This document shows, in pieces, positions 2,325 through 45,794 of a DNA stretch of 64,000 nucleotides. How positions within the stretch are numbered: the stretch's first letter is position 1; every line of letters begins with the position of its first letter. The notes below the pieces were generated by a model. It made no database searches, had not been told where the DNA came from, and was given only the letters and a program-made list of their open reading frames with translations. The DNA comes from a phage, in the sequence record PZ151149.1; one strand, written 5' to 3'. A program made the translations under genes and the position numbers.

Positions 2325-3023
2325 CTAACCACGGGTATAGTGTTCCAGAACAACGGTCAGATGAATATATTCTAATAAATCTTTCCAAAAGTCAACATCT
2401 GGTTCTTCCGGCATACCGTTTTTCTTTGCCTCTTCACGCGCGAGTTTAACACGCTCGTAGAGATCTTTCAATTCTTCCCGCACATTATCAAAGGTTCTTT
2501 CTCCTAACTTACACGCTAAAATAGAAGAACGTCGCGCGAGAGGGAATTGTAGATCACCAGTCTGATAGATTTCAAGTAGCTGATAACCAACACGCAGAGC
2601 ATGAGAAAGGTCTTTCCAGTTACTGAAATACTTTTCAGATTTGGCTACCTGCTTTTTGAGATAACCGGAGCACCCCCACATACCAACATGATAGAATTTA
2701 TCGCGATGTGTTCGGATGTATTCCCATTCTCTGGAGGATTCAATCAACATGTTACTAGGCGCGTGCACCATGTCAATAGCGCCGATATCACCTTTACATG
2801 CCAGATTGATAAACCGTTTTAGACTGAACATATTAACGTCAATATCGTCTTTGGTGTTCTTGATACCTTGACCGCTAGTGCTTTGGTCATAGTGTTCTTT
2901 CATCGATCCTAAGATAATTTCTTTCGCAGTCGGAACAAAGATACCACGATAATCTTTATCGGAATTTTCAGTATCAAGGCCGTATAAGTGAGATCCGAAG
3001 ACCATTTTAACCATTGTATGCAT
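2325..3023 (-). CDS. nucleotidyltransferase-like protein (Pol-beta-type NTase fold)
   Basis: N-terminal GSHLYGLDTENSDKDYRG motif (GS..YG...SD.D) typical of predicted nucleotidyltransferases; start may be one of three nearby Met codons. Confidence 0.5.
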   Translation of the reverse strand: MHTMVKMVFGSHLYGLDTENSDKDYRGIFVPTAKEIILGSMKEHYDQSTSGQGIKNTKDDIDVNMFSLKRFINLACKGDIGAIDMVHAPSNMLIESSREWEYIRTHRDKFYHVGMWGCSGYLKKQVAKSEKYFSNWKDLSHALRVGYQLLEIYQTGDLQFPLARRSSILACKLGERTFDNVREELKDLYERVKLAREEAKKNGMPEEPDVDFWKDLLEYIHLTVVLEHYTRG

Positions 3024-3036
3024 AATTAAACCCTCA

Positions 3037-3567
3037 TTAGTATTTTACGTTACGTCGAACGCCTTTTCGAATCTGACAAATAGCAGACGGTGAAACATTA
3101 TATTTTCTTGCAAGTTCTACACCCTTCATATGGGGAGAAGATAAAATCTCTTCCACTTGGTCGTCGGTAAGTTTTGCGTTTCCGTGGTTCTCTCCCCAAT
3201 TGTTGTTTAATCCTTCTTCCTTCGCATGAACAAGATTTCGGGTATCTGTCGTCCATTCAAGATTATAAAGGTCATAGTTTTGTTTGTTTCCATCCTTATG
3301 ATTAACTACACGGTAGTTATTTGGATTCGGAATAAACGCAACCGCCATAGCTTTATGCATGTTCACGGTTTTTCTAAATCCATCCGGCTTATAACATACT
3401 GTAAATTTAGAATAACCAGTTTTACCATAAACACTAATATAATTTCCGGTCTCTGTATTTCTAACCCTACCATGAGAGCTAATCTCAAATTGAGTGTAGG
3501 GCAACAGCGCATCAATCACTTTCCATTCTTCGACAGGATGGTCATCACAATATCTTTTAATCATCAT
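3037..3567 (-). CDS. HNH homing endonuclease (NUMOD4-like N-terminus)
   Basis: Motif VNHKDGNKQNYDLYNLEW (HNH) and N-terminal W..I....YEIS..GRVRN pattern; sits after a terminator between conserved genes. Confidence 0.65.
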   Translation of the reverse strand: MMIKRYCDDHPVEEWKVIDALLPYTQFEISSHGRVRNTETGNYISVYGKTGYSKFTVCYKPDGFRKTVNMHKAMAVAFIPNPNNYRVVNHKDGNKQNYDLYNLEWTTDTRNLVHAKEEGLNNNWGENHGNAKLTDDQVEEILSSPHMKGVELARKYNVSPSAICQIRKGVRRNVKY

Positions 3568-3575
3568 ATCACCTC

Positions 3576-3607
3576 ATAAAAATAAAGCCAACCCTTTCGG
3601 ATTGGCT
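3576..3607 (-). terminator. rho-independent terminator after the GrcA-like gene
   Basis: Hairpin GCCAATCC-GAAA-GGGTTGGC followed by T-run on minus strand. Confidence 0.5.
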
Positions 3608-3614
3608 TAAAAAA

Positions 3615-4031
3615 TTACATTGCTTCCGTAAAGGTGCGCGAAATAACGTCACGTTGTTGGTCTGGAGTCAGACTATTGAATCTTACGGCATATCCGCTAA
3701 CGCGAATGGTTAGTTGCGGATACTTATCAGGATTAGCAACCGCATCAAGAAGAAGATCGCGACTCATCACATTGATATTCGCGTGCTGACCACCTTCGAC
3801 AACCGGAGCGCCATTATCTACAACAACCGGACGGAAGCTAGTTGTGTGCAGTGCCAGCGAATCGACGTCTTCGGCGGTGATCACATGTTCTTCTGCGAAA
3901 GTTTTACTAACAATTACTTTAGCGCCGATCAGTGCTTTCGGTTCGGATACCAGAATCATAGGCGCGAAGTGTCCACCGATAATAGTACCTTTATGCTCAC
4001 CTTTCATGATTTGAATTGCTTTAAATTCCAT
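3615..4031 (-). CDS. grcA: autonomous glycyl radical cofactor (GrcA/YfiD-like)
   Basis: C-terminal glycyl-radical fingerprint [13 protein letters not shown] identical in type to pyruvate formate-lyase/GrcA; T4 is known to encode a YfiD homolog. Confidence 0.75.
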
Positions 4032-4166
4032 AATTCACCTCTTATAGATCAGGACGTTCGTCATTAACTTTTCCAACCAAAACCCCATAGAGCCTATCAG
4101 GTTGGACTTTACGATTCTTTTTAATTGTAGCACGAAATCGACGAGCTACGCTATCTTTATTTTTCA

Positions 4167-4652
4167 TCAGTTGATACCTAAGCCAATGAAAATAGGTTGG
4201 TCTTCTACATTACCCATCCCAACACTAAGTCGATTTACTTCTAAAAACTGCAATACGCTGTCAGTAAATCCTCGCATGGTAGTATCTAGGATAAAGATTG
4301 TTTTGTCAAGACTACGACCTCGCCAAGTGATCGGATTCAGGAAAGTTCGGATCGAAGTGCAATCTACATTTGAAATGTTGATATTTTCACCGCGACCGCG
4401 TTCTCGGATCGTTTTGGCATGTTCCCGCGTTGTTGAAACGATAAAAACACTATATCCTTTTCGCGTATAATGGTCATATAACTTGATTGTAGCGTCTGTA
4501 TGCCCTGTTTGACGGCCTAAATTGATTGAGACGATGGAATCTAGGTCATCAGCAAAATTACGTCGCTTACGGCGTTCTATGATGCCATCTACGGCAGATA
4601 CACACGCAGCATAAATCAAATCTTTACTTTCTAATTTTACATCAATATTCAT
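4167..4652 (-). CDS. hypothetical protein (161 aa)
   Basis: ORF with ATG start; no recognisable motif. Confidence 0.5.
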   Translation of the reverse strand: MNIDVKLESKDLIYAACVSAVDGIIERRKRRNFADDLDSIVSINLGRQTGHTDATIKLYDHYTRKGYSVFIVSTTREHAKTIRERGRGENINISNVDCTSIRTFLNPITWRGRSLDKTIFILDTTMRGFTDSVLQFLEVNRLSVGMGNVEDQPIFIGLGIN

Positions 4653-4714
4653 GGTAAAGTCTCCAGTGAACGGGGAGAGATCCTTAGATTGTCTCCCCGT
4701 TGATGGTTAATATT

Positions 4715-5104
4715 TTATTTTGGATCTGGGTATTTGCTGTGTGGCAATTGTAGATGAGGACCATCTTTGAAACTAGACCAATCCCCACCCCATTCAACAG
4801 GAACACCCAATTCTCGACCAGCTTGTTTAAATGCATCAGCGATCATGCGGTAATATTTCATGTTCCATGTATCCTTATCTTTAGGATACGCTACAACGTC
4901 AACCGCGAAACCGTGAAGATGACGAGATTTCATAGTCTTAGATTTACCTTCCGCAACATATTTCTTTTGCGTTTCTAGACTACGCACACCTTCCGTAATA
5001 CCAAAATCGACCGGAGTCAGTTCTAATGCACGATGAACGACTTTTACCAGGTCTGGATGTACACCAACAAGCCGATCTTTGCTTCTTTGAGATAATTTAA
5101 ACAT
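4715..5104 (-). CDS. L-alanyl-D-glutamate peptidase endolysin (peptidase M15, T5 Lys-like)
   Basis: Close resemblance to remembered phage T5 endolysin N-terminus (V.P.L.KV..RALEL.P.DF.I..G.R) and SRHLHGFAVDV zinc-binding motif. Confidence 0.7.
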   Translation of the reverse strand: MFKLSQRSKDRLVGVHPDLVKVVHRALELTPVDFGITEGVRSLETQKKYVAEGKSKTMKSRHLHGFAVDVVAYPKDKDTWNMKYYRMIADAFKQAGRELGVPVEWGGDWSSFKDGPHLQLPHSKYPDPK

Positions 5105-5132
5105 TATTCACCCCCTTTGTGAGTGATAATAT

Positions 5133-5324
5133 TTAGATTCCTGTGATCCTGCATAGAGTTCTTGTATTAGCACCAATCAGGATCGCATTAACGGCAACCA
5201 TTCCCCAATCAACCCACGGATTATTATAAATGCTAAATCCGTTTGCTAGGCCAAATACAAGCATTCCGGTACACATACTCAGAGCAATAATCAACATCAC
5301 GGTAAAACCAAATGCAAATCTCAT
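5133..5324 (-). CDS. small membrane protein (63 aa)
   Basis: ORF, two hydrophobic segments. Confidence 0.4.
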   Translation of the reverse strand: MRFAFGFTVMLIIALSMCTGMLVFGLANGFSIYNNPWVDWGMVAVNAILIGANTRTLCRITGI

Positions 5325-5325
5325 A

Positions 5326-5541
5326 TTATTTTCCTTTTCTCTGTTTACGTTTATAAAAGTAATACATTACCTCATCGCGTCCGGTGATCCAACATGCTAG
5401 GGCGGTAAACAGGTTTACAATTCCCAACACACCTACGGATGCGGCGCTGTCAACAGACATAGGAACAGTAAAGGCCATAACTAACATAGCAACGCCACAA
5501 ATGACATTAAGCACCATTATAATAAGACCGAAGAAAACCAT
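5326..5541 (-). CDS. holin-like small membrane protein (71 aa from internal ATG; long form starts 5592)
   Basis: Two hydrophobic helices followed by basic tail YKRKQRKGK; ATG at 5541 lies 3 nt after upstream stop. Confidence 0.4.
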   Translation of the reverse strand: MVFFGLIIMVLNVICGVAMLVMAFTVPMSVDSAASVGVLGIVNLFTALACWITGRDEVMYYFYKRKQRKGK

Positions 5542-5543
5542 TG

Positions 5544-5723
5544 TCAATCCTCCGACACAAGAAAACCAACAATCACGCCAGTGATAAGACATGATGCACC
5601 GCTAATAAGACAACCCGCGCCAAGTGATTCCCACCATATAAGGGAAGCGACGATAACACAGAGTCCCCAGACTACAGCAATCACAACATAGGCAATGGTC
5701 GCCCAAAACATATATTTGTTCAT
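5544..5723 (-). CDS. small membrane protein (59 aa)
   Basis: ORF; ATGA start-stop overlap with upstream gene. Confidence 0.4.
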   Translation of the reverse strand: MNKYMFWATIAYVVIAVVWGLCVIVASLIWWESLGAGCLISGASCLITGVIVGFLVSED

Positions 5724-5908
5724 AATAAATCCCATTCACCAAACAAATAAGAAAAAAGCCATATCAACAGAAACGAGGCGATTGATCCAGCAAGCAAAAT
5801 GATATTAGAGAATCCGCCGTCTATCCAGCCAATCAAACAGAATACGCCAGTATAGAAGCACAACCCCAGCACAAAGCATACTATAATCAACCATAGATAA
5901 AACGCCAT
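5720..5908 (-). CDS. small membrane protein (62 aa)
   Basis: ORF, strongly hydrophobic. Confidence 0.4.
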   Translation of the reverse strand: MAFYLWLIIVCFVLGLCFYTGVFCLIGWIDGGFSNIILLAGSIASFLLIWLFSYLFGEWDLL

Positions 5909-5969
5909 AGAAAGCCCTCCAGTTAGCTAATTTAGTGCGGGTAGTACATTCCCCTACCCGCTTTGTTAA

Positions 5970-6128
5970 TCAACGTAGAGCTTGTTCTAAAGCGATTCCA
6001 AACCATCCGCAAACAACACCCATACAGACAGCGACAAGAAGACTCATTCTCTCTTTAGGGATCATTGCAATCATAACAACAACCATACAGAAAGCCATTA
6101 CCATTGCAGTTAACATTTGTTCAATCAT
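5970..6128 (-). CDS. small membrane protein (52 aa)
   Basis: Minus-strand ORF MIEQMLTAMVMAFCMVVVMIAMIP...; below the ORF-track size cutoff; track shows only an antisense ORF here. Confidence 0.35.
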   Translation of the reverse strand: MIEQMLTAMVMAFCMVVVMIAMIPKERMSLLVAVCMGVVCGWFGIALEQALR

Positions 6129-6130
6129 TA

Positions 6131-6445
6131 TCACACCTTCAAAGTCATAGACGCATAGACATTAATACCAGGCCAGTTAGGATCGCAATTATACTCAACA
6201 TCCCATAGATAAAGCGGTTTAGATGTATCAGCCAGGTTTTTAAAATCTTCTACCCACATTTCAAGGCTATATGAAGGATAAACTAGGCTATCATACCCTC
6301 CGTAACGTTGGCCTACTGGTCGGTCAGTAAAGACTACCTCAAGATCCGGTAATTCTTTTTCTAGGATAACCGCCAGCGCATAAATCAGGCGGTCTTCCTT
6401 GTTACGCTGCCGTAGGACCGTTGTCAGTTGGTTCGTCTGGTTCAC
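6131..6445 (-). CDS. hypothetical protein (about 104 aa)
   Basis: ORF; likely GTG start at 6445 with GGAGG RBS 9 nt upstream; overlaps 3' end of upstream gene. Confidence 0.4.
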   Translation of the reverse strand: MNQTNQLTTVLRQRNKEDRLIYALAVILEKELPDLEVVFTDRPVGQRYGGYDSLVYPSYSLEMWVEDFKNLADTSKPLYLWDVEYNCDPNWPGINVYASMTLKV

Positions 6446-6722
6446 TAGCAACTACCTCCACATTTTCACAGAATGAAATTTTCACAGACACAATTTTACC
6501 ATAAGTGAAGAATGAATATACATTATCGAGATATTCAACGTCACCTACAATCACATCAAACTGCGGATCAGCAACTGCCGCAACATATTCTACCAGTTCA
6601 TCAAGAGAATGCAACTTAATTTCATCAATTCGGCTGTATTTGGTTGCATCTTTGATCTTAAAACCACGTTCTTTCAGTTTATCGATCAGAATTTCGCGCG
6701 GAGTTTCAAACAGTTTACTCAT
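6402..6722 (-). CDS. hypothetical protein (106 aa)
   Basis: ORF with ATG start. Confidence 0.5.
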   Translation of the reverse strand: MSKLFETPREILIDKLKERGFKIKDATKYSRIDEIKLHSLDELVEYVAAVADPQFDVIVGDVEYLDNVYSFFTYGKIVSVKISFCENVEVVASEPDEPTDNGPTAA

Positions 6723-6740
6723 AATATAATCCTCACACAG

Positions 6741-6941
6741 TTAATCAGTATAGTCAATAATCTTGCACATTACAATTGAAAGAACAAAGACCGCAACCCA
6801 CATATAGATCCCAGCAATCAATGCTACTTCAATATCACAATATCCAAGAAGTACAACAGGAATAAAAACAAACATACAGACCAGCGCAATGAAACTAGCA
6901 TATACGCTCGAAAATATGATGGCACTATTATTAATTTTCAT
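6741..6941 (-). CDS. small membrane protein (66 aa)
   Basis: ORF, hydrophobic. Confidence 0.4.
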   Translation of the reverse strand: MKINNSAIIFSSVYASFIALVCMFVFIPVVLLGYCDIEVALIAGIYMWVAVFVLSIVMCKIIDYTD

Positions 6942-6942
6942 A

Positions 6943-7125
6943 TTAACAATCCTCGCGGTTTAAGTCAACTATAATTGCATACAGCATAATGAAAACACTA
7001 GCAGATCCTAGAATCAATGCACCGTCACATTTTGAAACGCGCTCATCAAAATGTAACATTATCCATCCGAGGATGTTAAAGGCGCAGACCGCGCCTATGT
7101 TCGCTAACCAATTAATCTTTTTCAT
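6943..7125 (-). CDS. small membrane protein (60 aa)
   Basis: ORF, hydrophobic. Confidence 0.4.
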   Translation of the reverse strand: MKKINWLANIGAVCAFNILGWIMLHFDERVSKCDGALILGSASVFIMLYAIIVDLNREDC

Positions 7126-7133
7126 AATATACC

Positions 7134-7460
7134 TTAGAAAGAAACAGTTTTCAAGAAATCCAGATTTTCAGTACCGAAAACAGAAAAGTAGTGTTTTCCT
7201 TTTTCGGTTTTAGAGAAAGCGATTGTCTTCTCTACATGGTGACGGAAGCCAGACAGACGATCACCCAGGTCAAGGCGGCAAGCGTAAGTAGTGCCGTTTT
7301 CGAAAGTAACCTCGATTTGAGTTTTGTCATATTCGCTTTCATAGGCTTTTGCTGCCGCGTCCTGTGCTTTACGCTCGAAGTCTTCGAAGTGGAATACTTC
7401 GTTTGCGTTAGCGAATACAGAAGATTCAGAGAAGATAACTTTAACAGATACTGGTTTCAT
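7134..7460 (-). CDS. hypothetical protein (108 aa)
   Basis: ORF preceded by conserved promoter-leader module and AGGAG RBS. Confidence 0.55.
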   Translation of the reverse strand: MKPVSVKVIFSESSVFANANEVFHFEDFERKAQDAAAKAYESEYDKTQIEVTFENGTTYACRLDLGDRLSGFRHHVEKTIAFSKTEKGKHYFSVFGTENLDFLKTVSF

Positions 7461-7502
7461 TTTGATACTCCTTAGTAGTTCGTGTTTCGTTTCGATGGGT
7501 GT

Positions 7503-7531
7503 ATTATGATATACACCCTATCGTGTGTCAA
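7503..7531 (-). promoter_or_regulatory. early promoter-leader module copy 2 (TTGACA-N17-CATAAT)
   Basis: Consensus hexamers plus leader ACACCCATCGAAACGAAACAC. Confidence 0.6.
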
Positions 7532-7539
7532 CAACTTTT

Positions 7540-7728
7540 TTAGTCTTTTTTCATAATTTCTAGGGCAGTTTCTACCGCACCTTTCCAACCTTCCCACATA
7601 ATGGACATAGTGATGAAGGTAAAGCACCCGCAGGAATCAGCCTTTTTAGAAATAAACCATTCTACAAACTCTTCGCTCATACCATGCTCTTTAGCGGATT
7701 CGCGTAATTGTTCAATTTTGTCTTCCAT
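7540..7728 (-). CDS. hypothetical protein (62 aa)
   Basis: ORF. Confidence 0.4.
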   Translation of the reverse strand: MEDKIEQLRESAKEHGMSEEFVEWFISKKADSCGCFTFITMSIMWEGWKGAVETALEIMKKD

Positions 7729-7737
7729 AGTATCACC

Positions 7738-7926
7738 TCAACACTTAACGTTATTCAATCGATTTTGAAAGTACATATAACAAGCATAGTTCTGTTTTGG
7801 TTGTACCGTATCAGATAGACACGCTTTTACAGCCTCGCGGTCCGATGGATCTACACCCTCAGCTTTAAGTAATGCTAAAATCTGGTTATAGCGTACTCTT
7901 AGTTGTACTAATGGTTTCTCCCCCAT
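7738..7926 (-). CDS. hypothetical protein (62 aa)
   Basis: ORF. Confidence 0.4.
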   Translation of the reverse strand: MGEKPLVQLRVRYNQILALLKAEGVDPSDREAVKACLSDTVQPKQNYACYMYFQNRLNNVKC

Positions 7927-7937
7927 AATATACCCTC

Positions 7938-8165
7938 TTACAGTTGATCAGCAATGTATGCGGTGCATTTGCGGAGTTTAGCCATAGCACCACCTTTCAT
8001 GTCGCTTGCGCCTACAATGTTCATGATCTCTAAGCGATCAGCCGGATTCAGTCTAGTAGCCCAGATCTGGTTAGCCAGTTCCATTTTACCCATCTGCGGT
8101 TCCATCTCAAACAGTTCACGCTCAAAGTCGATAATTTCTTTTGCTGCGTCTTTAAAGTTAATCAT
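7938..8165 (-). CDS. hypothetical protein (75 aa)
   Basis: ORF preceded by promoter-leader module. Confidence 0.5.
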   Translation of the reverse strand: MINFKDAAKEIIDFERELFEMEPQMGKMELANQIWATRLNPADRLEIMNIVGASDMKGGAMAKLRKCTAYIADQL

Positions 8166-8194
8166 TTTGATTCTCCCGTTTCGTTGATGGTTGT

Positions 8195-8223
8195 ATTGTA
8201 GGGGAGTTATCCTCCCCTGTCAA
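8195..8223 (-). promoter_or_regulatory. early promoter-leader module copy 3 (TTGACA-N17-TACAAT)
   Basis: Consensus hexamers plus leader ATCAACGAAACGGGAG. Confidence 0.6.
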
Positions 8224-8231
8224 CACTTTTA

Positions 8232-8417
8232 TCAGAAATATGCAATATAGTTTGCCAGTCCTACAGAGTCATCATTCGGCATTGCTTTTACTGCCAGTTC
8301 AAACCCTGCTTCAACTTTCTGTTTAGCGGATTCTTCGTTATAACCCCAAATTACCAGAATAGCTACTACGTTTTCTTTGCTTACTGCTTTCAGTGCTTTA
8401 GTGATGCGACGTGCCAT
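8232..8417 (-). CDS. hypothetical protein (61 aa)
   Basis: ORF preceded by promoter-leader module. Confidence 0.5.
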   Translation of the reverse strand: MARRITKALKAVSKENVVAILVIWGYNEESAKQKVEAGFELAVKAMPNDDSVGLANYIAYF

Positions 8418-8463
8418 AATTTGATTCTCCGTTTAAGAAAGTGTGTTTCGTTTCGATGGGTGT

Positions 8464-8492
8464 ATTATGCTATAGGCGGGGTCTGGTGTCAA
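8464..8492 (-). promoter_or_regulatory. early promoter-leader module copy 4 (TTGACA-N17-CATAAT)
   Basis: Consensus hexamers plus leader ACACCCATCGAAACGAAACACAC. Confidence 0.6.
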
Positions 8493-8520
8493 CAACTTTT
8501 TTCAAAAAAATTTAGGCAAT

Positions 8521-8548
8521 AAAAAAGCCACTCCGAAGAGTGGCTTAT
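8521..8548 (-). terminator. rho-independent terminator
   Basis: Hairpin AGCCACTC-TTCG-GAGTGGCT then TTTTTT on minus strand. Confidence 0.65.
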
Positions 8549-8695
8549 AGGGGAAGGTAGCGAATCTTCCTTGTCTCCAACCTGCTAGCGGCCTAGCAAG
8601 TGAATGCTTTAGCGTACCGGATCACCCCATACGCTGCAATAAATGCGGCTAGGTGACGTCCAAATCATTCTAACCGCGCTGTCTTTAGTTCACTA

Positions 8696-8914
8696 TTATT
8701 TATATCGCTTTCTCTCGCGACGTTTTTGATCTTCTTCCTTGATAGAGTTAAATGCATCAAAAAGACACATGACACTGATCAGGAACATAACCGTATTTTC
8801 TACGATATCCCACGGCTTCGCATCAGTACAGATCCCCCAAACGGTAAGAAATGCAAATAGTGCAGAAGAGATCACAAGCATGATACTTGCTAAGATATAA
8901 AAAGTCATCTTCAT
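8696..8914 (-). CDS. small membrane protein (72 aa)
   Basis: ORF, hydrophobic with basic C-terminus. Confidence 0.4.
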   Translation of the reverse strand: MKMTFYILASIMLVISSALFAFLTVWGICTDAKPWDIVENTVMFLISVMCLFDAFNSIKEEDQKRRERKRYK

Positions 8915-9093
8915 GGTTTTACCTCAATTCTTCGATATTCATCACACATCCACGCAGTAAGCAAGAATCCCAACACATAAGCAACAAAATACGTTAATGC
9001 TTCTTCTGGTTCCGTGCTATGTGTCATCAGTAAACCAGCGAGAACAGTCTTAATAATTACATTTAAAATAATTAGCCACGCAAATAGTTTCAT
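8911..9093 (-). CDS. small membrane protein (60 aa)
   Basis: ORF, hydrophobic. Confidence 0.4.
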   Translation of the reverse strand: MKLFAWLIILNVIIKTVLAGLLMTHSTEPEEALTYFVAYVLGFLLTAWMCDEYRRIEVKP

Positions 9094-9329
9094 CGTTTGC
9101 CCAATTTCGGCCGAGTCTTTTCAAACTTATACATTCCGTAACAATCTCGAATCATCCACGTAACAAGAGCACCAGTCAACACCGACAACACACAGAAGAA
9201 GTAAAACGGTCCGGTTGCATTATCAACATGAGCAAGCCATGTAAAGAAAACACATGCTAAGAATGTAAAGAACATCATAAAGCACAAGAAAGCGAAATAT
9301 TTTATACTACTCATAGAGCCACCATACAA
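9090..9329 (-). CDS. small membrane protein (79 aa)
   Basis: ORF, hydrophobic. Confidence 0.4.
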   Translation of the reverse strand: MYGGSMSSIKYFAFLCFMMFFTFLACVFFTWLAHVDNATGPFYFFCVLSVLTGALVTWMIRDCYGMYKFEKTRPKLGKR

Positions 9330-9417: not shown

Positions 9418-9615
9418 TCATAGATCACAGATCCATCTAACAACACCACATACAGCGATCAGGAGTGTAGGACCACTTGAGAAGAAAACCAATGTACAAA
9501 AATCATCTAGTGTAATACCGGAATAACTACCGACTGCAATCACACCGATGATCAGACACAGAAAGAAAACAAATGCAATCAGAAACAAAGTATTACTAAA
9601 CAGTTTAGTGATCAT
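9418..9615 (-). CDS. small membrane protein (65 aa from ATG at 9615)
   Basis: ORF, hydrophobic. Confidence 0.4.
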   Translation of the reverse strand: MITKLFSNTLFLIAFVFFLCLIIGVIAVGSYSGITLDDFCTLVFFSSGPTLLIAVCGVVRWICDL

Positions 9616-12582: not shown

Positions 12583-13116
12583 CTAAAAATTTAAACTAGC
12601 ATAATCTCCAAAATGTTCCTTTGCTGCTTCGTCATAAGCCTTTGCAGCATCAACTTCGTCAAGAAAGACGCCCAAATGGACCTTTCTACGATTGATTGAT
12701 ATCTGAGCACACCATTTGTTATTCTGTGTTCTAATCACTCCTTTATACTTACTCTTACAACCATCAAGTTTTCCGCGATTGAATGCATTTTCCTGAGAAG
12801 TGGATTCTCTCAAGTTATCCGGTGCATTATTTTCTCGGTTTCTATCTATATGGTCGATCATTTTAACTTGCGTACCATGTTCAAGATACCAAACAACCCT
12901 ATGAACTTTAATGACCAAAGAATAGCCATCACTGCGCCAAAACTTAAAACATAGATAACCTCGACTATTTTTATAAACTTTAACCGGGTCTCCTGCCTTA
13001 TACCATCGACCATTCTTTCCACTATCTTTCAAATGGTACAATATACCATTAACGTGTTTATACTTATCTCTAATTTCTTTTTGTGTAAAATCATCCCACA
13101 TCTTAAACCCAGACAT
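12583..13116 (-). CDS. HNH homing endonuclease with C-terminal AP2 DNA-binding domain
   Basis: HNH motif IDHIDRNRENNAPDNLRESTSQENAFN; AP2-like YKGVIRTQNNKWCAQISINRRKVHLGVFLDEVDAAKAYDEAA; inserted between genes 3 and 2. Confidence 0.7.
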   Translation of the reverse strand: MSGFKMWDDFTQKEIRDKYKHVNGILYHLKDSGKNGRWYKAGDPVKVYKNSRGYLCFKFWRSDGYSLVIKVHRVVWYLEHGTQVKMIDHIDRNRENNAPDNLRESTSQENAFNRGKLDGCKSKYKGVIRTQNNKWCAQISINRRKVHLGVFLDEVDAAKAYDEAAKEHFGDYASLNF

Positions 13117-17695: not shown

Positions 17696-19495
17696 ATGCT
17701 AATGTTTAATAACTCCGTTAAATGGTTTACCGGAATTGTAGAAAACAGGGAAGATCCATTAATGCTGGGGCGCGTTCAGGTTAGGATTCATGGTATACAT
17801 CCTTCGCTATCCGCACACGGTGACATTCAAGGTCTCCCAACCGAAGATCTATTATGGATTACGCCAGTACAAGACATTACAAGCGCGGCGATCTCCGGTA
17901 TAGGTCAAAGTCCTACTGGTATTGTTGAAGGTTCAATGGTATTTGGATTGGCTTTAGATGAACGTTATTTAAACTGCGTTATTCTGGGTACTATTGCCGG
18001 ACAATATACAGAGAAACCACTCACTACAGAAGGTTTTTGTGACCCTTCGGGTGCATATCCTCGTTATATTGGTAATGATGTTAATATTCTTGCCCGTGGC
18101 GGTATTAACCCAGAAACCGGACAAACAACAAAACCTGATAGTGTCTATATTCGAGATGAAAACACTGGAGTTGCAGTAAATCCAGACGACGAGCCATTAG
18201 ATCAAATTCCGGTTGATGATAATCCTGATTTTACAATAGAAAAAATGCTTCGTGGCGATGAGGGATATCGTGAGAAATGGTATCTTGATTCAGAAGGATA
18301 TCCGACAATAGGCATCGGGCATTTGATCATTTATAAGAAAACCAGTGATCTGGGTATTATCAATAATGAACTTTCTAAGCTGGTAGGGCGTGAAGTTACA
18401 AACGGAAGACTTACCGCCGAAGAAGTTAGTAAAGTATTTGCCGACGATATAGAAAAGACCCGTCGTGATATGCGCAAACATCCACGAATTGCACCTGTCT
18501 ATAATAAATGTAATGCTTCTCGTCGTATGGCATTAGAAAATATGGCGTTTCAAATGGGCGTTGGTGGATTGGGTAAATTTAAGAATAGCCTTGCTGCAAT
18601 GCTAGCAGAAGAATGGAAACAAGCCTATGATGGATTACGTCAATCGGTATGGGCTAACCAAACTCCAGGACGCGCCAACCGTGTTTCTAAAATTATTCTT
18701 ACTGGTAACTTAGAATCATATGGCGTAATTGCTCCTAAGAAAGAGGAATCAATTTCTGATGATCCGAGAGCACGTTTGAGAAAAACCCGTATTGCTGCAT
18801 ATAAGACGCAGAGAGCAGAAGAAGACCCAGAAGCACCGTTTACCCCACAAGATACACGAATCATGTTTAAAGAGCCTAAGAGTTCGTATTCTGCAAGGTA
18901 TCCATATAACCATGTGTACGAGTCAGAGAGCGGTCATATTATCGAGATTGATGATACTCCTTCTCATGAGCGATATCATCGTAAACATCCTTCTGGTACA
19001 TTTGAAGAAACCAGACCGGACGGAACGAGGGTAGAAAAGATTGAAGGTGATGATTATCTGATCGTTAAACAAGGCCGGAAAGTAAACGTTAAGGGTAATT
19101 TGCAAGTTGTTGTTGAAGGTGACGCGCAAGTTTATTATATGGGTAATGTGATGCAAACCGTTGATGGTAACGTCACGGAATTTATTCGTGGTAATGTTAA
19201 TCAGACCGTTGAGGGTACAGCTAATATGCATGTTGTAGGTGATGTTACCGCTCAGCTTGACGCTAATTTAACGGCTAATGTCAAGGGTAATGCTGAATTA
19301 ATGATCGAGGGTAACACTACCGAAACAATTAAAGGTAACTATGATTTAACCGTTGAGGGTAATTTTAATATGACCGTCAATGGCACTAAATCAGATCAGG
19401 TTAATGGTGACTGGTCCCGTAATTGTGGTGCAAGCGTTAAAGATATTGCATCGGGTACAGTTAAAATTGATGGTAGCCGTATTGATCTTGGGTGA
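17696..19495 (+). CDS. 5: baseplate hub / tail lysozyme gp5
   Basis: Lysozyme core YLDSEGYPTIGIGHLI; C-terminal V.G repeats of a beta-helix; size 599 aa. Confidence 0.9.
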   Translation: MLMFNNSVKWFTGIVENREDPLMLGRVQVRIHGIHPSLSAHGDIQGLPTEDLLWITPVQDITSAAISGIGQSPTGIVEGSMVFGLALDERYLNCVILGTIAGQYTEKPLTTEGFCDPSGAYPRYIGNDVNILARGGINPETGQTTKPDSVYIRDENTGVAVNPDDEPLDQIPVDDNPDFTIEKMLRGDEGYREKWYLDSEGYPTIGIGHLIIYKKTSDLGIINNELSKLVGREVTNGRLTAEEVSKVFADDIEKTRRDMRKHPRIAPVYNKCNASRRMALENMAFQMGVGGLGKFKNSLAAMLAEEWKQAYDGLRQSVWANQTPGRANRVSKIILTGNLESYGVIAPKKEESISDDPRARLRKTRIAAYKTQRAEEDPEAPFTPQDTRIMFKEPKSSYSARYPYNHVYESESGHIIEIDDTPSHERYHRKHPSGTFEETRPDGTRVEKIEGDDYLIVKQGRKVNVKGNLQVVVEGDAQVYYMGNVMQTVDGNVTEFIRGNVNQTVEGTANMHVVGDVTAQLDANLTANVKGNAELMIEGNTTETIKGNYDLTVEGNFNMTVNGTKSDQVNGDWSRNCGASVKDIASGTVKIDGSRIDLG

Positions 19496-44968: not shown

Positions 44969-44999
44969 TAACGTCGTTATCAACAAGAAGGTTATAACC

Positions 45000-45794
45000 A
45001 TGCTTAAAGAAATGCTGCTCGAAGAAGCAAAACAGATCACCGTAGACGTTGCTCTCGATGACCTGTTTGAATCCGTCGAACTGTCGCCGGAAGTAAAAGA
45101 AAATTTTGGTGCTATCTACGCTCAGGCGGTAAAAGCTAATGCTGTTGCACTGGCAGAAAGCCACATTGAAAAAATCGCCGCTAAAGCCGATGAACTGGTA
45201 GAATCAAAGGTCGAAGAAGCACGCACCGAGATTGAAACCAAACTGTACGAAGATGCAGATAAATTCCTGAATCACTTAGGCGCTAAATGGCTGGCAGAAA
45301 ATAAAGAAGCCGTCACCCGTAATATTAAAGCGGATCTGTGCGAATCCCTGATTGGTTCTCTGAAAGATGTTTTCGTTACTCACAATGTTGTAGTACCGGA
45401 AGAATCTGTAGACGTTGTTGCTGAACTTGACGAAGCACTCAAAGAAGAAAAAGAAAAAACCTCTGAACTCTTTGATGCCAAACTGCAACTTGAAAGCGAA
45501 ATTCGTGGCATGAAGCGCGAACAAGCGATCAATGAAAGCACTCGTGATCTTTCCGATACTCAGAAAGAAAAAGTAACCGCGCTGATTGAAGGTCTGGAAT
45601 ATAGCGAAACTTTCGATAAGAAATTAACTGCAATTGTCGAAATGGTTGCTAAGAAAGAAGACAAACCAGCGAAGATTGAAGAATCACTAAATACTGATGC
45701 TGACAAGCTGAATGTTATTGCAGAAGCTGTCGAAAAATCAGATAAAAAGGCAACTGTAGATTCCGGCGTATCCCGCTACCTGAATTTCATCTAA
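45000..45794 (+). CDS. 22: prohead core scaffold protein gp22
   Basis: Synteny, size 264 aa, acidic coiled-coil composition. Confidence 0.85.
   Translation: MLKEMLLEEAKQITVDVALDDLFESVELSPEVKENFGAIYAQAVKANAVALAESHIEKIAAKADELVESKVEEARTEIETKLYEDADKFLNHLGAKWLAENKEAVTRNIKADLCESLIGSLKDVFVTHNVVVPEESVDVVAELDEALKEEKEKTSELFDAKLQLESEIRGMKREQAINESTRDLSDTQKEKVTALIEGLEYSETFDKKLTAIVEMVAKKEDKPAKIEESLNTDADKLNVIAEAVEKSDKKATVDSGVSRYLNFI

Follow-up and report, generated by a model that had tools for sequence, protein, structure and literature searches.

The question raised by this locus is whether an endolysin gene and the two small membrane-protein genes beside it form a compact lysis cassette, or whether they merely adjoin one another. 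The window analysed here (the whole 64,000-nucleotide stretch of phage sequence record PZ151149.1, one strand) is assigned by its sequence to an RB49-like T4-type coliphage of the genus Krischvirus, since 59 Krischvirus records match the region at 90–98.5% identity. The three open reading frames (ORFs) concerned were all present on the minus strand:

4715..5104, minus strand: lys, an endolysin of 129 aa, predicted to be a Zn-dependent L-alanyl-D-glutamate endopeptidase of family M15C; orthologue of EndoRB49 (RB49 ORF102)
5133..5324, minus strand: ORF A, a predicted small inner-membrane protein of 63 aa; orthologue of RB49 ORF103
5326..5541, minus strand: ORF B, a predicted two-TMD hairpin of 71 aa with a basic C-terminal tail; orthologue of RB49 ORF104

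The lys product matched Pfam Peptidase_M15_4 (PF13539) with an E value of 6e-12 and 46.4 bits (curated cut-off 25) and PHROG 465 'endolysin' with an E value of 9e-69. It is identical to PDB 23ri at 128/129 positions, the single substitution being S110 here for T110, from which no functional difference would be expected, and is ~95% identical to PDB 8q2g, 'Peptidoglycan L-alanyl-D-glutamate endopeptidase'. The predicted metal-ligand and catalytic residues are H62, D69, D114, and H117 by our own residue count along the alignment to T5 Lys (38% identity, E 2e-28): the alignment pairs SKHITGDAID with SRHLHGFAVD of lys, giving H62 and D69, while D114 and H117 were read off the protein sequence at DGPH, which lies mostly past the end of the alignment. 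The motif GGDW gives W109, a residue named for EndoRB49 in PMC10487532, and the RB49 mutagenesis primers in the same paper encode VEWGGDWTSFKDGP, which matches the lys product. EndoRB49, whose activity is published (PMC8140593, PMC10487532), has been described as the L-alanoyl-D-glutamate peptidase endolysin of the pseudo-T-even phage RB49 (Mikoulinskaia et al. 2018, J Gen Virol 99:402, as cited in PMC10487532 and PMC8140593). The RB49 enzyme (ORF102; 23ri, 8q2g) shares with lys its length, its Zn-ligand and catalytic residues, W109, and its position upstream of vs.8.

Profile, residues, and near-identity together place the lys product among the Peptidase M15C L-alanyl-D-glutamate endopeptidase endolysins (EndoT5/EndoRB49), and the HMM search proposed in the initial annotation bears out its claim that the locus encodes an M15 L-Ala-D-Glu peptidase and not an e-type lysozyme. 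The further description of the enzyme as 'T5-type' is apt insofar as it is an M15 peptidase of the EndoT5/EndoRB49 kind, but T5 Lys is a distant relative at 38% identity compared to 63–64% for the endolysins of P2-like and Nonanavirus phages, the closest relatives found outside Krischvirus. EndoT5 is also regulated by Ca2+, while EndoRB49 is not (PMC10487532). A pooled pN/pS of 0.27 across eight Krischvirus genomes speaks against lys being a chance ORF. Kyte-Doolittle and Hessa scans of the lys product found no hydrophobic segment, TMD, or signal sequence, and the enzyme would therefore need a large-hole holin.

The position of lys corresponds to that of the T4 lysozyme gene, and is anchored by the gene that follows it:

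4167..4652, minus strand: vs.8 homologue, directly downstream of lys; a synteny anchor shared with T4 (from the Phi1 annotation and the T4 map)

The T4 order is 57B...e-ipIII-ipII-denV-vs.8-vs.7-vs.6, and the order in both Phi1 and the window is 57B...lys-vs.8-ORF100-vs.6. Thus, T4 and this phage both carry their endolysin in the early 57B–vs.8 interval, and lys takes the place of e between 57B/dmd and vs.8. The two enzymes are non-homologous, that of T4 being a muramidase, and the surroundings differ as well: lys lies directly against vs.8 with small membrane-protein genes before it, where T4 has nudE/e.2-e.8 instead. A tblastn search for T4 e homologues in the window and the rest of Phi1 matched only 18236..18721, which by position lies inside baseplate-hub gene 5.

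If the holin had been exchanged along with the endolysin, ORF A or ORF B might be expected to be the only holin in the genome, but this is not what we found. T4 T as query identified Krischvirus kvi T (48.5% identity, E 8e-63), and kvi T in turn found exactly 59 records at 95% identity or more, annotated as t/holin and equal in number to the records holding the endolysin region. A T-type holin is present in 59/59 Krischvirus records with this region, its sequences sharing at least 97% identity among themselves and its gene following the tail-fibre gene gp37 ~100 kb from lys; the closest relative, PHB13, carries the T4 t homologue at 79592..80245, and tblastn found no T4 t within the window (best E 0.06). 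In Phi1, lys lies at 54.4 kb, pseT.3/pseT.2 at 128.6–129.4 kb, and t at 154.9 kb, and rI is annotated in its T4-like place. The spanin candidates have recognisable features, with an N-terminal TMD and charged helix region in PseT.3 and an internal lipobox, LSSC, in PseT.2. This layout is shared with T4, where t likewise follows the distal tail-fibre genes, rI lies beside tk, and pseT.3/pseT.2 lie beside pseT. Phage SSG23 shows a similar dispersal, its holin (ORF 227), endolysin (ORF 101), and spanins (261/262) being separate and distant (PMC12533011).

The locus is not a contiguous holin-endolysin-spanin late operon, with vs.8 downstream of lys and with t and the spanins distant in Phi1. What was replaced is T4 e only: because the T4-type holin is kept ~100 kb away, this is an endolysin swap rather than a compact holin-endolysin cassette. 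The initial annotation had named, as evidence that would speak against a cassette, a canonical t holin and e lysozyme elsewhere in the genome (with the small genes dispensable for lysis) or a lack of TMDs in the small proteins. The holin is indeed present elsewhere (59/59); beyond the gp5 domain there is no e lysozyme in the window or the rest of Phi1, and TMDs are predicted in both ORF A and ORF B.

The proteins themselves had been described as having two hydrophobic helices each and one basic tail. This stands for ORF B, which has hydrophobic segments at residues 6–24 and 34–52 and the tail YKRKQRKGK (basic part KRKQRKGK). ORF A has one strong TMD at 9–27 and a weakly basic C-terminus; its second, weaker hydrophobic stretch (~37–54) falls below the Kyte-Doolittle and Hessa thresholds, although TMHMM called TMDs at 5–27 and 37–54 in the RB49 orthologue, ORF103c, as it did at 2–24 and 34–53 in ORF104c, the orthologue of ORF B (PMC1524935 Additional File 2). 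Both genes evolve under purifying selection, with pooled pN/pS across eight Krischvirus genomes of 0.24 for ORF A and 0.13 for ORF B.

In Pfam, PHROGs, and NCBIfam, neither protein reached the threshold for any holin family. ORF A had no Pfam match and falls in PHROG 15016 (unknown function); ORF B falls in PHROG 15232 (unknown function), and its best holin match in Pfam, Phage_holin_3_5, reached an E value of 0.011 and 16 bits, under the cut-off of 27, beside equally weak matches to unrelated hydrophobic families. A word-indexed search of 5.8e9 proteins returned only six clusters for ORF A, all at 88% identity or more, and an exhaustive HMMER search of 1.84e9 representatives returned for ORF B only its own cluster and one marginal hydrophobic match. 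A tblastn search of 50,697 phage records with the concatenated proteins of ORFs A–E (for which identity values are unreliable, as BLAST ran across reading frames) recovered the same 59 genomes and no homologue outside Krischvirus. These searches mark ORF A and ORF B as genus-restricted orphans, and there is no sign of their co-transfer with lys since neither has a homologue outside the genus.

By gross features, ORF B would be the best 'holin-like' candidate. Class II holins and pinholins are exemplified by S21 of phage 21, a 71-aa protein with two TMDs, and ORF B shares with them its size class, two-TMD hairpin, charged C-terminus, and position upstream of an endolysin. One could thus propose a compact cassette in which ORF B acts as a class II holin or pinholin, permeabilising the inner membrane for the enzyme encoded beside it; it would have been gained with lys as a module, would replace T or be redundant with it, and might have ORF A for a partner or antiholin. 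Its strong conservation, its place directly upstream in the lys transcription unit, and the sub-threshold Phage_holin_3_5 match are compatible with this, and a conserved ATG farther upstream in the same frame, at 5592, could resemble a dual-start motif. However, ORF B differs from class II holins and pinholins in having no family membership and no functional dual start, in lying in an early unit, and in accompanying an endolysin without a SAR domain in a genome with a canonical holin. A pinholin could not free a soluble endolysin lacking SAR, and early expression of a holin would risk premature lysis. T, rI, and the spanins are all kept, and the closest relatives of the endolysin have other neighbours. 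We consider this cassette reading very unlikely.

The 88-aa long form of ORF B that would start at 5592, the end of the interval first annotated, was considered as a dual-start antiholin and rejected on its substitution pattern. Three nucleotide changes in the extension in phage E26 alter three residues in that frame and one in the frame of the overlapping upstream gene, as would a segment non-coding in the ORF B frame; the start at 5592 is therefore probably not used. A GGAGGA Shine-Dalgarno sequence precedes the start at 5541.

The combination of small size, TMDs, and a charged C-terminus by which a holin might be recognised is present in both ORF A (one to two TMDs) and ORF B, but its specificity is low because many neighbouring ORFs have it too. 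A run of seven small hydrophobic ORFs occupies 5133..7125, with ORF A and ORF B as its final members; it was overlooked when the pair was treated alone. The other five are:

5544..5723, minus strand: ORF C, 59 aa, two predicted TMDs; its start overlaps the ORF D stop (ATGA); PHROG 16151
5720..5908, minus strand: ORF D, 62 aa, two predicted TMDs; PHROG 19354
5970..6128, minus strand: ORF E, 52 aa, two predicted TMDs; PHROG 16035
6741..6941, minus strand: ORF F, 66 aa, two predicted TMDs; PHROG 15379
6943..7125, minus strand: ORF G, 60 aa, two Kyte-Doolittle hydrophobic segments, of which the second (35–53) alone also passes the Hessa-scale threshold; PHROG 16425

Two or more TMDs are predicted in 10/22 small ORFs of the first 12.6 kb, and basic tails occur in three. 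Some members of the run vary among phages: a frameshift alters the C-terminus of ORF D in Cognac and Whisky, both of them viable phages, and ORF F sits in a variable stretch where Phi1 carries two ORFs instead. Comparison of ORFs A–G with one another, and with the holins or neighbours of the P88, SP-062, GAP161, and T5 endolysins, gave nothing below an E value of 0.2. Being short, orphan, and uncharacterised, the small ORFs could conceivably be chance reading frames in hydrophobic-looking, T-rich DNA, but we regard this as extremely unlikely: pN/pS is 0.13–0.43 with frames intact in eight Krischvirus genomes, the ORFs have Shine-Dalgarno sequences and tightly coupled starts and stops, and each ORF represents a conserved PHROG family, with the ORFs seen on more than 100 contigs. 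With features shared so widely among small early ORFs, no holin-family membership, and T, rI, and pseT.3/pseT.2 kept elsewhere, the 'holin-like arrangement' of ORF A and ORF B loses its force.

The transcriptional context of lys also bears on the question, with four elements identified along the unit:

7503..7531, minus strand: predicted early promoter, TTGACA-17-CATAAT in the extended context typical of the genus; equivalent of RB49 Pe:57746 (PMC1524935 Additional File 3)
5519..5547, minus strand: sigma-70-like match, TTGACA-17-TATTAT, spanning the ORF C/ORF B junction
4669..4701, minus strand: predicted RNA hairpin just 3' of the lys stop, dG -21 kcal/mol, z -3.84, no U-tract
3585..3608, minus strand: predicted intrinsic terminator after vs.6 (a GrcA-like gene)

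Transcription of the whole unit, from 7460 down to ~3600, most likely depends on the early promoter at 7531, and the terminator at 3585..3608 is likely the end of the unit. In RB49, Pe:57746 was predicted with no further early promoter until Pe:52389, and no late promoter was predicted between 48756 and 64518 (PMC1524935). The site at 5547..5519 was considered as an internal promoter for ORF A and lys but is probably a chance match, since it lacks the extended early context and is absent from the RB49 predictions (PMC1524935). The hairpin is kept in 5/8 genomes, with an AP2-HNH gene inserted in its place in JSE, JK32, and Whisky.

The minus strand from 3500 to 8696 contained no TATAAATA, the sole near-match being the one-mismatch TCTAAATA at 5137..5130. 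Although 8/8 genomes conserve this site, we did not adopt it as the late promoter of lys, since it is unproven, overlaps the end of ORF A, and departs from the T4 late-promoter consensus at a strongly conserved position. Thus, lys appears to lie in an early unit (7531 to 3608..3585) without a recognisable late promoter, and the motif-based early promoter heading the unit gives no indication of late expression of ORF A or ORF B. T4 e differs in having a late promoter. The apparent lack of one here counts against the explanation favoured below, as protein stability alone would have to account for the late supply of endolysin. Since t is retained in 59/59 records, and ORF A and ORF B are confined to Krischvirus and belong to an early unit apparently lacking a late promoter, the inference of a 'swapped lysis module' is not supported.

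Related M15 endolysins in other phages lie beside unrelated genes. In P88 (a P2-like Xuanwuvirus), whose endolysin, gp11, is among the closest outside the genus (63% identity), the holin/antiholin gp10 and endolysin form a true contiguous cassette. The P88 holin is 107 aa long, and neither ORF A nor ORF B is similar to it or to the T5 holin. T5 provides a parallel in one respect: like the phage studied here, it combines an M15C L-Ala-D-Glu endolysin (T5p039, EndoT5; 38% identity) and a T4 T-family holin (T5p040; 28.6% identical to T4 T). In T5, however, these two genes are adjacent and overlapping, whereas here the T-type holin is ~100 kb off and unrelated small membrane genes lie by lys.

Small membrane or periplasmic regulators of lysis, such as RI and RIII, are used by T4-type phages, and ORF A and/or ORF B might similarly be auxiliary regulators that tune T triggering or lysis inhibition, or tether or regulate the endolysin. 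Such a role would explain their position and co-transcription with lys, and would be consistent with the high conservation of ORF B. Yet neither protein resembles RI, RIII, or other known regulators, Phi1 already has an RI homologue, and the T4 regulators do not adjoin e. The adjacency is also missing in GAP161, another T4-like phage that has an M15 endolysin, where the upstream neighbours are soluble. (A vs.8 homologue following that endolysin would have carried the synteny into Pseudotevenvirus, but the gene found there is not one, its E value being 8.1.) A regulatory role seems to us very unlikely.

The explanation we favour, with a probability of roughly 0.85, is that EndoRB49 stands in place of e within a lysis set dispersed in the T4 manner, and that the holin is neither ORF A nor ORF B. 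Endolysin made from the early unit would stay in the cytoplasm until T acts, with T forming large holes late in infection, the RI antiholin modulating its timing, and the spanin pair PseT.3/PseT.2 then disrupting the outer membrane. ORF A and ORF B would be the end of a set of seven closely spaced genes in the early unit for small inner-membrane proteins, specific to the genus and for the most part coupled in translation, adjoining lys through operon packing and not through shared function. Judging from context, ORFs A–G are most likely accessory early proteins acting on the host envelope, with superinfection exclusion, host takeover, and interference with a membrane-bound host factor as candidate roles.

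Two features of ORF B count against this explanation: its generic resemblance to a class II holin (two TMDs within 71 aa, a very basic C-terminus, co-transcribed upstream of lys) and its standing as the most conserved gene in the run (pN/pS 0.13). There is a slim chance that ORF B, alone or with ORF A, is an early-expressed holin-like or lysis-timing protein acting alongside T and co-transcribed with lys. If so, it could allow T-independent release of the endolysin, or tune lysis when lysis inhibition blocks T.

The replacement of T4 e by an M15 enzyme in RB49-like phages is already published, the enzyme having been purified, assayed, and structurally solved, and annotations of these phages routinely place the holin, antiholin, and spanins at other genomic locations. 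Our analysis adds a correction: a small two-TMD protein beside an endolysin is not evidence of a holin in T4-type genomes, because their early regions are packed with such genes. The role of the ~10 small, conserved, genus-specific membrane proteins in the early region is an orphan-gene question of a general kind, not one peculiar to the lys locus.

Megablast of window 4500..6200 returned 59 phage records at 90–98.5% identity, all of them RB49-like T4-type coliphages of the genus Krischvirus (Straboviridae), with vB_EcoM_PHB13 as the best match. In the annotated Phi1 and W115 records, the region sits in a long leftward early-gene block, flanked by gp55.3/dmd upstream and by vs.8, vs.6, regB, vs, tk, and rI downstream. 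The three ORFs that the initial annotation read as a compact holin-endolysin cassette are all present on the minus strand: the endolysin gene (lys) and ORFs A and B, which end a run of seven small hydrophobic ORFs (A–G) packed at 5133..7125 that the annotation did not mention. Our data indicate, with a probability of roughly 85%, that the holin for this endolysin is the T4-type holin T rather than A or B.

4715..5104, minus strand: lys, 129 aa, M15 peptidase endolysin
5133..5324, minus strand: ORF A, 63 aa, one strong transmembrane domain (TMD) and a weaker second segment
5326..5541, minus strand: ORF B, 71 aa, two hydrophobic segments, tail KRKQRKGK
5544..5723, minus strand: ORF C, small hydrophobic ORF of the run
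5720..5908, minus strand: ORF D, small hydrophobic ORF of the run
5970..6128, minus strand: ORF E, small hydrophobic ORF of the run
6741..6941, minus strand: ORF F, small hydrophobic ORF of the run
6943..7125, minus strand: ORF G, small hydrophobic ORF of the run

The lys product matches Pfam Peptidase_M15_4 above threshold, falls into PHROG 465 ('endolysin'), is identical to PDB chain 23ri_A at 128 of 129 residues, and is ~95% identical to 8q2g_A ('Peptidoglycan L-alanyl-D-glutamate endopeptidase'). Its RB49 orthologue, EndoRB49, was purified in a 2018 study cited in PMC8140593 and PMC10487532. The assignment as an M15 peptidase was thus correct, yet already published in detail. No hydrophobic segment was found in the lys product, which is therefore a cytoplasmic endolysin needing a hole-forming holin.

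T4 e matches the window only at 18236..18721 (43% identity), which is the lysozyme domain of baseplate hub gp5, given its position after genes 3, 2, and 4; neither the window nor the Phi1 segments covering the rest of the genome gave any other match to the e lysozyme. The leftward order in T4 is 57B, ipI, tRNAs, e.8-e.2, nudE, e, ipIII, ipII, denV, vs.8, vs.7, vs.6, whereas Krischvirus has 57B, dmd, many small ORFs, 55.3, the small membrane-protein run, lys, vs.8, ORF100, vs.6. The M15 peptidase gene thus lies directly against vs.8 in the early interval that holds e in T4; only the endolysin has been replaced, in place and by a non-orthologous enzyme.

Outside the genus, the closest endolysin relatives come from a P2-like Xuanwuvirus and a Nonanavirus (63–64% identity), and together with these the endolysins of other non-T4 phages are 59–64% identical to the Krischvirus protein. 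Serratia ChiX (PDB 5opz) also matches (E 7e-37). The Krischvirus endolysin is nearer to this group than to T5 Lys (38%) or to M15 endolysins from other T4-type genera (~45%), and this greater proximity to non-T4 phages suggests that M15 endolysins were acquired separately within Straboviridae.

The initial annotation also proposed a swapped lysis module. ORFs A–E were present only in the 59 Krischvirus records and were not found outside the genus; B has no relatives among 1.84 billion representative proteins outside the cluster to which it belongs, and A forms six near-identical clusters among 5.8 billion proteins. Each of the seven products falls into a PHROG family of unknown function whose profile is as long as the protein itself, or nearly so. 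The gene upstream of the endolysin encodes a 107-aa holin/antiholin in P88 and a T-family holin in T5, while soluble proteins are encoded upstream of the M15 endolysin in GAP161 (Pseudotevenvirus); no similarity was found between A–G and these neighbors, or among A–G themselves. Genus restriction of A–E, unrelated endolysin neighbors in the relatives, and retention of the T system all argue against a swapped module, and at the sequence level we see no sign of module transfer alongside the endolysin.

A T4 T query (tblastn) retrieved a gene from Krischvirus phage kvi (48.5% identity, E 8e-63) that is annotated as a putative holin and lies just 3' of the distal tail-fiber genes. The kvi protein matches exactly 59 records at ≥95% identity, the same count as for the endolysin region and the small ORFs, among them PHB13 (the closest relative), RB49, and Phi1, in which the gene is called t. 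The gene was not found within the 64-kb window; in Phi1, t lies at 154.9 kb and the endolysin gene at 54.4 kb. A canonical T4-type t, distant from lys in Phi1, thus occurs in all 59 records, contrary to the proposed partnership with an adjacent holin; of the canonical pair sought elsewhere, t was found and e was absent outside the gp5 domain. Phi1 also carries rI and rI.-1 beside tk, and pseT.3/pseT.2 beside pseT. An N-terminal TMD precedes a charged, coiled-coil-like region in PseT.3, and PseT.2 contains an internal signal-lipobox (FALSSC), features that fit an i-spanin/o-spanin pair. In SSG23, which is 97.4% identical in the studied region, the holin is ORF 227, the endolysin ORF 101, and the spanins ORFs 261/262 (PMC12533011).

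The frames of A and B are intact across eight Krischvirus genomes, with pooled pN/pS of 0.24 and 0.13, respectively, so both are real genes; purifying selection refutes the idea that the small ORFs are spurious, to which we give almost no credence. A and B show less synonymous divergence (pS 0.08 and 0.06; few sites) than flanking lys, C, and E (0.14–0.24), which could reflect a recent sweep, recombination, or overlapping nucleotide-level constraint. The two hydrophobic helices and basic tail described earlier are evident in B; the second segment of A is weaker, though TMHMM calls two TMDs in the RB49 orthologues of both (PMC1524935 Additional File 2). Among 22 minus-strand ORFs of ≤100 aa in the first 12.6 kb, 12 carry one or more predicted TMDs, 10 of them two, and basic C-terminal tails occur in three, so this architecture is a local norm and not a holin mark. 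Stop and start codons in the run overlap or lie 1–2 nt apart.

In gross features and position B would pass for a genuine class II holin or a pinholin, but it belongs to no holin family, is genus-restricted, resembles many nearby ORFs, and would be expressed at an unfavorable time in phages that retain T; a pinholin, moreover, would be unable to release this endolysin, which lacks a SAR domain. We consider this unlikely, and equally so a role for A and/or B as lysis regulators, for which the only support is an adjacency that other T4-type phages with M15 endolysins do not share. A conserved in-frame ATG at 5592 was considered as a dual-start antiholin and rejected: three substitutions in E26 alter as many residues in that frame but only one in the overlapping frame of C, so the extension is not under protein-level constraint.

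Elsewhere among the small ORFs, a second cluster of four two-TMD ORFs (8696..8914, 8911..9093, 9090..9314, and 9418..9615, minus strand) includes two with basic tails (EDQKRRERKRYK and KFEKTRPKLGKR). A 1-nt deletion in D alters its last ~10 residues in Cognac (L011 1620..1807) and Whisky (L010 1721..1908), and in Whisky the result is an annotated ORF of 101 aa continuing into C; since both phages are viable, the D C-terminus is dispensable. Window 6737..6938 is a variable cassette within the run, with one ORF (F, 66 aa) here versus two of ~65–69 aa (ORF110/111) in Phi1, E26, and Cognac, and no DNA-level alignment to Phi1 (L001 11238..11636).

Timing was assessed from promoter motifs. Four strong minus-strand matches (10486, 8492, 8223, and 7531) share an extended context of an A-rich tract, GTTG, TTGACA, 17 nt, and CATAAT (TACAAT at 8223), then a leader, ACACCCATCGAAACGAAACAC (shifted and variant at 8223); the extended early-promoter consensus is AAAAGTTG-TTGACA-N17-CATAAT. 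That the transcribed leader is conserved points to a common element in the 5'-UTR, for instance a signal for processing or translation. The match at 7531 is the counterpart of the RB49 early promoter Pe:57746; the next listed downstream is Pe:52389, with none between, and the stretch from 48756 to 64518 contains no listed late promoter (PMC1524935 Additional Files 3 and 5). No exact TATAAATA occurs on the minus strand from 3500 to 8696, the sole near-match being TCTAAATA (one mismatch), 31 nt before the lys start; the early region's only exact minus-strand copy is at 8704..8697, at the stop of ORF 8696..8914. Two further elements were located:

5547..5519, minus strand: fifth promoter match, across the C/B junction, without the extended context
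3608..3585, minus strand: good intrinsic terminator, after vs.6

Based on the promoter context, the RB49 lists, the absence of an exact TATAAATA, and this terminator, the unit most likely runs from 7531 through an LPD25-domain ORF (7134..7460), G, F, two 106-aa ORFs, E–A, lys, vs.8, ORF100, and vs.6. A holin driven by a strong early promoter would, on this motif-based argument, sit poorly with lysis timed to late infection.

Directly after the lys stop, a stable hairpin (4669..4701, minus strand; dG −21 kcal/mol, z −3.84) without a U-tract is kept in five of eight genomes, followed by GGAG, the vs.8 Shine-Dalgarno and also a RegB-type motif. In JSE (L014 2960..3535), JK32 (L013), and Whisky (L010), a 191-aa HNH-AP2 endonuclease gene between lys and vs.8 (window ~4653..4714) replaces the hairpin. 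Strong divergence of the last ~27 lys codons (...VICGVDWVTFKDGPHMELDKKVYPDPV) is confined to these three phages and resembles a co-conversion tract that arrived with the endonuclease. Other nearby genes include:

2325..3023: nrdC.11, RlaP-family nucleotidyltransferase
3037..3567, minus strand: 176-aa free-standing HNH/NUMOD4 homing-endonuclease-like gene, between nrdC.11 and vs.6
3615..4031, minus strand: vs.6 homologue, a GrcA/YfiD-like autonomous glycyl-radical cofactor (Pfam Gly_radical, E 5e-15)
12583..13116, minus strand: second free-standing HNH-AP2 endonuclease gene, 177 aa, just after gene 3

A 525-bp stretch (3037..3561) is wholly missing from Phi1 and W115, as is a ~600-bp stretch around 12583..13116 from Phi1. 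T4 vs.6 is likewise annotated as GrcA/YfiD-like, and the C-terminus of the homologue presumably differs very little from the one in E. coli GrcA. Outside the window, Phi1 carries an isolated early-strand gene annotated as gp38 adhesin (L001 1..563; record 44989..45765), placed in the early region ~10 kb from the endolysin gene and far from the tail-fiber cluster at 145–155 kb.

Taken together, EndoRB49 would be made early and wait in the cytoplasm until T, under RI control, forms holes late and releases it, with the spanins finishing the outer membrane. ORFs A–G may be accessory early inner-membrane proteins acting on the host envelope, outside the lysis pathway; superinfection exclusion, host takeover, or a similar role is our best guess. 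The holin and module half of the initial annotation is not supported, and the endolysin region is an ordinary, already known feature of the genus Krischvirus.
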